Positions 6,340-6,400 of a stretch of DNA of 64,000 bases are shown here, piece after piece. Positions within the stretch are counted from its first letter, which is position 1. Each line of letters starts with the position of its first letter. Source of the stretch: Escherichia coli (GTDB lineage Bacteria; Pseudomonadota; Gammaproteobacteria; Enterobacterales; Enterobacteriaceae); assembly GCF_044324785.1 (NCBI RefSeq), contig NZ_CP172127.1, one strand, 5' to 3'. The position numbers and the translations under genes were made by a program. The notes below the pieces were generated by a model. The model made no database searches. It saw nothing but the letters and a program-made list of their open reading frames with translations, and was not told where the DNA came from.

Positions 6340-6400
6340 GGAAATGATTAATTCATAATAAATATGAATTAATACAAAATTTCTTATTAATGTTAAGAAG

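Follow-up and report, generated by a model that had tools for sequence, protein, structure and literature searches.

The genes selA and selB are followed on the same strand by yiaY in the DNA analyzed here, a stretch of 64,000 nucleotides from Escherichia coli that is referred to below as the window. RefSeq annotation of a 100%-identical E. coli sequence names selB and yiaY as the genes on either side of the intergenic region under study, and the features of the locus are as follows.

3107-4498, plus strand: selA coding sequence (list of open reading frames)
4495-6339, plus strand: selB coding sequence (list of open reading frames; RefSeq names on identical E. coli sequence)
6337-6339, plus strand: selB stop codon, TAA
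6347-6373, no strand: perfect inverted repeat ATTAATTCATA-ATAAA-TATGAATTAAT (sequence reading, inverted-repeat search, shuffle test), with 11-nt arms ATTAATTCATA at 6347-6357 and TATGAATTAAT at 6363-6373 and the 5-nt spacer ATAAA
6398-6436, plus strand: selB intrinsic terminator, hairpin AAGGCACGUUA...UAACGUGCUU and then a U-run (inverted repeat, RNA fold)
6463-6473, plus strand: GATCATATTTT, the strongest footprint upstream of yiaY, with identity of 0.92 to 1.00 and present in every yiaY-carrying genus
6490-6499, plus strand: GTAAGCTGCC (GTATGCT in other genera), candidate yiaY -10 region (alignment; putative promoter role)
6530-7681, plus strand: yiaY coding sequence, Fe-type alcohol/L-threonine dehydrogenase (open reading frame and annotation)

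The original prediction of a perfect 11-bp inverted repeat between the selB stop codon and the selB terminator hairpin was borne out. The arms are complementary at 11 of 11 positions (100%), the repeat begins 8 nt past the stop codon, and 157 nt lie between its end and the yiaY ATG, in agreement with the ∼160 nt that had been given. The setting is also as AT-rich as described, with a GC content of 18 to 22% across 6300-6450, and from this trough it remains under 41% as far as the first 250 nt of yiaY. An AT-rich island (∼6300-6800, 18 to 40% GC) covers the yiaY promoter and has the repeat at its upstream edge.

Arms of at least 11 nt with a loop of 3 to 10 nt arose in 0.26% of 5,000 dinucleotide-preserving shuffles of the 190-nt selB-yiaY intergenic region (P ∼0.003), and arms of at least 9 nt arose in 3.5% of the same shuffles. 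The repeat is the only AT-rich perfect inverted repeat of 11 bp or more in the 64-kb window; the remaining ∼8 loci with perfect inverted repeats of this length are GC-richer and terminator-like. Given the thousands of intergenic regions per genome, the shuffle statistic by itself is suggestive, not compelling. Because one such chance repeat in a whole genome would be unremarkable, the conservation across genera described below is the stronger argument.

The selB terminator forms ∼14 pairs at 6398-6430, followed by UUUUUAUU, in an RNA fold of 6337-6440; it was missed by a consensus scan because its loop exceeds 8 nt. Between the two E. coli alleles of this region, both bases of a pair have changed in a compensatory manner at two places in its stem (one G-C pair is A-U in the other allele, and one A-U pair is G-C), and Pseudocitrobacter, Kluyvera, and Enterobacter have a different stem altogether. 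At the position equivalent to 6390-6436 of the window, the K-12-type allele has A7 upstream and T5 downstream of the hairpin, which gives this terminator a bidirectional look. The A-run upstream of the terminator is interrupted in the window allele (GTTAAGAAGG).

Closer to yiaY, the GATCATATTTT block contains a Dam site, with GTA(A/T)GCT ∼25 nt downstream, and both are conserved upstream of yiaY even in genera without the palindrome. The GATCATATTTT block is probably part of the yiaY promoter or of an activator region, and 6463-6473 and 6490-6499 together probably constitute the yiaY core promoter or an activator (FNR?) region; the fit to the FNR consensus near 6463-6499 extends to a half-site only. 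Consensus scans of 5800-6650 on both strands returned no promoter-like sites, and small open reading frames in the intergenic region amount to two frames, both implausible.

Two neighboring features were recorded alongside. The 3′ end of selB holds seven GATC (Dam) sites in 110 nt (∼0.4 expected), at 6108, 6118, 6136, 6162, 6169, 6175, and 6214 (6108-6217), and dam-dependent occupancy by RNA polymerase and protein has been described at this cluster, with the cause left unexplained in that study (10.1101/2025.01.06.631547). Between yiaY and the expected aldB lies an open reading frame of 431 amino acids (7811-9106); RefSeq lists a Fic family protein at the same position in strain E2348/69. Upstream of it (7706-7810), a hairpin-forming repeat occurs twice (ACTATCTCAAAA...TTTTGAGATAGT at 7726-7757 and a second copy at ∼7777-7806), and these repeats are possibly operators or terminators of an inserted module.

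Conservation of the repeat across genera and within E. coli

A SelB scan with one genome per species returned 80 loci. The gene order selB-yiaY occurs in Escherichia, Citrobacter, Pseudocitrobacter, Kluyvera, some Enterobacter, Intestinirhabdus, Pluralibacter, and one further gut genus, and where yiaY follows selB the intergenic region is AT-rich and ∼185 to 190 nt long. In ∼50 species or loci, including Klebsiella, Raoultella, the Enterobacter cloacae complex, Lelliottia, Leclercia, Kosakonia, and others, selB is followed by aldB or other genes instead of yiaY; the DNA downstream of selB is GC-rich in these, and the repeat is absent. Since its presence is restricted to genomes with the order selB-yiaY, the element travels with yiaY and not with selB. 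In an uncultured Pluralibacter whose gene order is selB-aldB-yiaY, yiaY is preceded by a GC-rich hairpin and lacks the AT-rich leader, so that this gene can occupy a quite different regulatory context.

As delimited by the alignments, the conserved unit is ATTAATTCA-N9-TGAATTAAT and then ACAAAA, smaller than the 11-bp repeat. Its parts are listed here with mean identities.

6347-6355: left core arm ATTAATTCA, identity of 0.91 for Escherichia versus Citrobacter and 0.88 versus Pseudocitrobacter
6356-6364: central 9 nt, varying freely between genera, identity of 0.42 for Escherichia versus Citrobacter
6365-6373: right core arm TGAATTAAT, identity of 0.90 for Escherichia versus Citrobacter and 0.96 versus Pseudocitrobacter
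6374-6379, plus strand: ACAAAA block beside the right arm, identity of 0.83 to 0.93 (0.83 for Escherichia versus Citrobacter)

Since the ACAAAA block is found on the right-arm side only, the conserved element is asymmetric. Arm identities range from 0.90 to 0.98 between Escherichia and Citrobacter and from 0.88 to 0.96 between Escherichia and Pseudocitrobacter. In the first of these comparisons, the linker to the terminator has a mean identity of 0.46 and other unconstrained intergenic stretches have 0.26 to 0.47, and the arms equal the best promoter-proximal footprint, GATCATATTTT (0.92), in conservation. Against Pseudocitrobacter, the arms and ACAAAA reach 0.88 to 0.96 versus 0.16 to 0.45 for the terminator stems, a low value that reflects the replacement of the terminator in that genus; the terminator 25 nt downstream has been exchanged there, but the arms and ACAAAA have been retained.

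In nine Citrobacter species, the element reads ATTAATTCA-N9-TGAATTAAT around a center that varies freely, and Pseudocitrobacter carries ATTAATTTA-N9-TGAATTAAT, with the selB stop codon inside the left arm. The repeat matches at 10 of 11 positions in E. albertii and at 9 of 11 in Escherichia sp. E1V33. Degenerate copies are found in C. amalonaticus, C. sedlakii, and Intestinirhabdus; Pluralibacter retains the left arm only; and no recognizable element is present in the yiaY carriers Kluyvera ascorbata and Enterobacter soli/asburiae. At the same spot, the genus-level relative MGYG-HGUT-00110 has a different perfect 9-bp repeat, AATTGATAT-N7-ATATCAATT, and Kluyvera georgiana has a bulged repeat. 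Judged from these alignments, purifying selection acts on the sequence of the element in Escherichia, Citrobacter, and Pseudocitrobacter, and the 11-bp perfection and the extended hairpin of the window are lineage-specific additions. The repeat is a genuine, non-random feature under evolutionary constraint, although the constraint is limited to the core with 9-bp arms.

Within E. coli the region is split into two alleles. A 41-nt query around the repeat was at least 99% identical in 1,234 of 5,416 complete E. coli genomes and 80 to 90% identical in 4,080, so that the perfect palindrome is present in ∼23% of complete genomes and a degenerate version in ∼75%. The majority allele, seen in the K-12-like strain S17-1, O157:H7, and other representatives, reads ATTAATTAA(G/T)T-TTTAA-AATAAATTAAT. 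It retains the outer 7 bp of each arm, and the sole C-G pair has become A/A, with 9 to 10 of the 11 positions able to pair. The loss of the C-G pair is asymmetric, with A replacing C on the left and G on the right. Poor conservation in related strains had been named in the original prediction as an observation that would speak against a binding site; it holds for the perfect palindrome, which is degenerate in most E. coli, and does not hold for the 9-bp core, or its outer 7 bp, which is general.

The dimorphism extends well beyond the repeat.

6354-6475: dimorphic segment, over whose 122 nt the window and K-12-type alleles show 30 differences (25%); the sequence on either side is the same in both

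Over this segment, the identity between the two E. coli alleles is 0.75, and that of either allele to E. albertii is 0.74 to 0.75. Because the outgroups have the C...G pair, the window allele is ancestral-like and the common E. coli allele is derived and degraded. The window allele is carried by ST95, JJ2434, and others, and the other allele is carried by K-12, O157, and EPEC E2348/69. The pattern suggests an ancient balanced polymorphism or an introgressed segment, and this intraspecific dimorphism is the most curious aspect of the finding. A separate rearrangement was seen in E. coli 2017.15.02CC, in which an IS1 element stands directly after selB and replaces the entire selB-yiaY intergenic region. 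The next genes there are a truncated YhcH/YjgK/YiaL-family pseudogene, yiaK, and yiaJ, and from this order yiaY and the genes beyond it appear to be deleted.

RNA folding, known motifs, and further copies

The repeat lies within the selAB transcript, and its capacity to fold as RNA differs widely between alleles. The 27-mer has a predicted folding energy of -7.2 kcal/mol in the window, -5.0 kcal/mol in C. braakii, -1.8 kcal/mol in the O157-type sequence, and 0 in the K-12-type sequence. For the 52-nt stretch from the selB stop codon (6337-6388), the values are -12.8 kcal/mol (z = -5.2) for the window allele, about -6 kcal/mol (z ∼-2) in Citrobacter, and -3.8 kcal/mol (z = -0.3) in K-12-like strains. 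The 104-nt fold of hairpin plus terminator (6337-6440) reaches -29.2 kcal/mol (z = -6). The strong fold of the window allele comes with a longer predicted stem.

6337-6386, plus strand: extended predicted RNA hairpin, window allele only, whose outer stem UAAGGAA (with the stop codon) pairs with UUUCUUA

Pair counts were taken from an alignment of 20 sequences, 19 of them distinct. The outer stem with the stop codon is paired in 52% of cases across species. Each of the outer 7 pairs of the repeat is the identical pair in 17 to 18 of the 19 distinct sequences, never with both sides changed; the inner two core pairs (C-G and A-T) are unchanged in 12 to 15 of the 19; and the pairs that add base pairs 10 and 11 (alignment columns 34-42 and 35-41, in the outer 2 + 2 nt of the center) are formed in about half of the sequences. 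The covariation score of the repeat (0.104) was no better than those of controls slid by -2 (0.116) or -1 (0.101). With an invariant core of 7 pairs and no double changes, the repeat lacks the compensatory changes across species that would mark a conserved structured RNA. An intrinsic terminator was rejected, since only one of the 11 pairs is G-C, the sequence after the repeat is ACAAAA rather than a U-run, and the real terminator stands at 6398-6430. The earlier view that the stem is too AT-rich for a stable terminator was therefore right in its conclusion that the repeat is not a terminator, but not in its premise, as the RNA is predicted to be stable in the window allele (-7.2 and -12.8 kcal/mol).

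Comparison with known RNA elements gave no match. An E-value search of 6000-6800 against the families of Rfam 15 yielded seven matches, all with E values of at least 0.69 and far below gathering thresholds. SECIS elements (in fdhF/fdnG and the selAB 5′ UTR) have a G+C-rich apical stem, a conserved loop, and a bulged U. A SECIS-like SelB-binding hairpin was rejected because the stem here is AU-rich and the loop freely variable between species, with no SECIS-type Rfam match. The overall layout of Hfq/ProQ-type 3′ UTR RNAs resembles the succession of repeat, linker, and terminator, and the element shares with AU-rich 3′ UTR stem-loops its position between stop codon and terminator, its hairpin-linker-terminator layout, and a good predicted fold in the window allele. 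Unlike small RNAs derived from 3′ UTRs, however, the repeat has neither covariation nor an Rfam family, and most E. coli have lost its hairpin. Neither an independent promoter nor signs of processing were found for a small RNA from the selB 3′ UTR; the searchable literature contained no mention of such an RNA and nothing usable on H-NS ChIP at yiaY or on ChIP or footprinting at the repeat.

Several DNA sites were compared by geometry. ARG boxes are 18-bp boxes of the form TGAAT-N4-ATTCA, paired 2 to 3 bp apart. An ArgR operator was rejected because the half-sites here face the other way (ATTCA-N9-TGAAT), because the spacing between adjacent boxes would be N7, and because the outer half-boxes are absent. 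XerC/D dif sites have 11-bp arms and a 6- to 8-bp center, with the inner arm bases (CATAA/TTATG) most conserved; the center here is 5 bp, and the inner arm bases vary while the outer ones are conserved, so a dif-like site was dismissed. A recombination site flanking a yiaY cassette was set aside because the yiaY 3′ boundary has no matching site. FNR, IHF, Fis, ArcA, and Fur/Zur gave no fit when their consensus sequences were compared by eye.

Sites associated with gene silencing are among the closest counterparts. The core site of the LysR-type regulator LeuO, ATATTCA-N5-TGAATAT, is known from Pcas site IIa and leuO site I (PMC6698644), and the reference sites located in the K-12 sequence are ATATTCATACTGTGAATAT, ahead of casA, and ATATTGATTTGGTGAATAT, ahead of leuO. 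Like the LeuO core, the repeat is an AT-rich (near-)perfect inverted repeat with ATTCA at the end of one half-site and TGAAT at the start of the other, and the LeuO site sits in H-NS-silenced AT-rich DNA that can be likened to the AT-rich setting of the repeat. Unlike the LeuO core, the repeat has 9 bp instead of 5 bp between ATTCA and TGAAT, and its outer half-site letters are TAATTCA instead of ATATTCA. The spacing departs from the T-N11-A geometry of LysR-type sites, and a LeuO core operator was rejected on this ground. The H-NS consensus is tCG(t/a)T(a/t)AATT, Ler contacts AATTGA, and both proteins read the narrow minor grooves of AATT (PMC3219716). The arms resemble high-affinity H-NS/Ler sites in that each has AATT with TpA steps (GATTAATTCATA; compare LeeH, GATAATTGATA) and in that the AT island lies upstream of a Ler-responsive, normally silent gene. 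Both arms match the H-NS consensus at 8 of 10 positions, which is near the chance rate (198 such matches in the window versus ∼160 expected). Unlike the H-NS family, whose loose reading of shape does not predict them, the arms are near-invariant over 9 bp.

Searches for further copies gave little beyond the locus itself. When mismatches were allowed, a second match in the window was found at 42946-42972, between xylB and yiaB (ATTAATTAATATTTAGTATGAATTTAT), with 24 of 27 positions identical to the reverse complement of the repeat, spacer included. The expected number of matches with at most two mismatches was 0.0015 in shuffles of the AT-rich islands, a null that probably makes chance matches in extremely AT-rich patches look rarer than they are. 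Conservation of the second match in E. albertii, E. fergusonii, Citrobacter, and MGYG-HGUT-00110 is confined to its right part (ATGAATTTATTCTGAAA; ATGAATTTATTCTGAAAATC) and does not extend to the left arm, which gives no support for a shared palindromic operator; from its conservation, the match probably belongs to the promoter region of yiaB and is unlikely to be an operator of the palindromic kind. BLAST found at most two to three similar places per E. coli genome. The exact 18-base pattern was present in more than 120 metagenome contigs, 16 of which are selB/yiaY loci of E. coli or Citrobacter; the rest are unrelated low-GC contigs, so the metagenome scan provides no evidence of a wider family. 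Among metagenomes, at least 10 contigs of ∼35% GC from the freshwater or sediment metagenome Ga0105103 carry the palindrome ATTAATTCATAAA(C/G)TTTATGAATTAATCGGGTT, which looks like a dispersed repeat unrelated to the enterobacterial site.

Explanations for the element

The expression of yiaY provides the background against which the element has to be read. In a study of K-12, yiaY was untranscribed in every genotype (10.1101/2025.01.06.631547). In EPEC E2348/69, the H-NS antagonist Ler activates yiaY 5-fold in mid-log and 9-fold in late-log phase, along with leuO, pagP, and other loci, and the authors predict H-NS repression of all Ler-activated genes (PMC3891560). In Shigella flexneri, yiaY is induced anaerobically (log2 of 3.2) in an FNR-dependent manner (PMC4229854), an induction that fits the conserved promoter-proximal block rather than the palindrome. 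At the selB-yiaY locus, E2348/69 has the degenerate allele; the Ler effect therefore does not depend on the perfect palindrome, and a link between the Ler result and the perfect allele is ruled out.

Our preferred explanation, to which we assign a probability of roughly 40%, is that the element is a sequence-specific DNA site in the control region of yiaY, within an AT island that is probably silenced by H-NS, with a putative partner protein. We infer that the constraint is read on the DNA by a protein, that yiaY is the target, and that H-NS-type silencing is the setting; the last point follows from the silence of yiaY in K-12, its activation by Ler in EPEC, and its induction by FNR in Shigella. 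The unit that follows selB would comprise an AT-rich leader, a terminator, a promoter, and the gene, and the palindrome would be one allele of its cis-element. The element would act as double-stranded DNA, in which two inverted 9-bp half-sites, each centered on AATT and ∼18 bp apart from center to center, may dock a sequence-reading protein. Located at the upstream border of the AT island over the yiaY promoter, it may be a distal operator or a site for nucleation or anti-silencing.

Several observations suggest that it is the sequence that is recognized, most simply as DNA: covariation is lacking, the terminator behaves differently, the arms outlast the hairpin, and the element is absent where yiaY does not follow selB. 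That the constraint acts on sequence and not on pairing alone is indicated by the outer 7 pairs without double changes next to a terminator that compensates or is replaced. An RNA hairpin is dispensable, because K-12-type alleles have little or no predicted fold (0 for the repeat; -3.8 kcal/mol, z = -0.3, for the longer stretch) yet keep ATTAATT...AATTAAT. The protein-binding site of the original prediction is thus favored in part, insofar as conservation leans to sequence recognition; no binder was identified, and all known motifs tried failed. Against a DNA site stand half-sites 18 bp apart, which are unusual for a simple dimer, and the asymmetric G-C loss in three-quarters of E. coli, which a strictly required symmetric operator does not predict. 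A general nucleoid protein alone would not explain letter-for-letter conservation, and the palindrome of MGYG-HGUT-00110 fits a structural (RNA) constraint at least as well.

This last observation bears on the unlikely but substantial alternative that the element works as RNA, as a stem-loop or small RNA in the selAB 3′ UTR between stop codon and terminator. It could be a stabilizer, a processing signal, or the 5′ hairpin of a ∼90-nt RNA derived from the 3′ UTR (hairpin, ACAAAA, AU-rich linker, terminator, and U-tail), possibly bound by a sequence-reading RNA-binding protein. Such a role is positionally natural for a site that belongs to the selAB transcript, precedes the terminator, and is separated by ∼140 nt from the likely promoter of yiaY. 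The repeat is part of a transcribed 3′ UTR, and the window allele folds strongly (-7.2 kcal/mol; -12.8 kcal/mol, z = -5.2; z = -6 with the terminator), as does, to a lesser degree, the 9- to 10-bp stem of Citrobacter (-5 to -7.8 kcal/mol, z ∼-2). The innermost pair is A-U, U-A, or G-C depending on lineage, and MGYG-HGUT-00110 and Kluyvera georgiana have their own perfect 9-bp and bulged repeats at the same position. However, the 7 to 9 conserved pairs show no covariation, with unremarkable shuffle and slide controls, and the hairpin is absent or at shuffle level in ∼75% of E. coli and likewise in Kluyvera ascorbata, Enterobacter soli, E. asburiae, and Pluralibacter. The selAB operon does not need it, as selB genes without a following yiaY have none, and Rfam, promoter scans, and the searchable literature offered no match. 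G-U mismatches outnumber A-C mismatches (6 versus 3), but these are clustered in two degenerate sequences and are too few events for a strand-specific test.

About as probable as the RNA reading is a further alternative, that the element is a relic or a neutral quasi-palindrome, left by an ancestral function or by the arrival of the yiaY cassette and without a present role in E. coli. Template-switch correction of quasi-palindromes at replication is a known mutational process, and the perfect 11-bp form would then be a by-product of descent, possibly sharpened in this way. The element is polymorphic and degenerate in most E. coli, it is lost or unrecognizable in several yiaY-carrying genera, yiaY is silent in laboratory K-12, and the surrounding 122 nt are hypervariable within the species. 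These points are countered by the arms and ACAAAA, which are ∼90 to 98% conserved across Escherichia, Citrobacter, and Pseudocitrobacter versus 26 to 50% for adjacent non-coding DNA, a distance over which neutral decay should have erased an 18-bp AT-rich pattern; template switching homogenizes arms mutually and would not hold one sequence across genera. The same conservation of position and arm sequence in three genera essentially refutes pure chance, a very improbable reading in which the palindrome is a meaningless outcome of AT-rich composition. Low complexity (18 to 22% GC) and the recurrence of the 18-base pattern in more than 120 mostly unrelated low-GC metagenome contigs would suit it, but the composition-matched shuffles (P ∼0.003) do not.

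Possible implications for yiaY control

Under the DNA-site explanation, a more specific but distinctly improbable proposal can be made, in which the element would be the operator of a putative regulator, with half-sites two helical turns apart, gating the silent yiaY from within the selAB 3′ UTR. The two-allele polymorphism would then be a natural switch, with yiaY control differing by lineage (ST95, ST131).

If the element is an operator or nucleation site, it would provide a handle on the silencing and switching of yiaY, an FNR- and Ler-responsive but otherwise poorly understood dehydrogenase. As an operator, it would also mark a regulatory difference between E. coli lineages, because extraintestinal ST95 and ST131-type strains keep the intact palindrome and most others do not. 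Were it an RNA element, the selAB 3′ UTR would gain a structure or a small RNA. Either way, the significance is local and modest, that of a small conserved cis-element of an ordinary kind.
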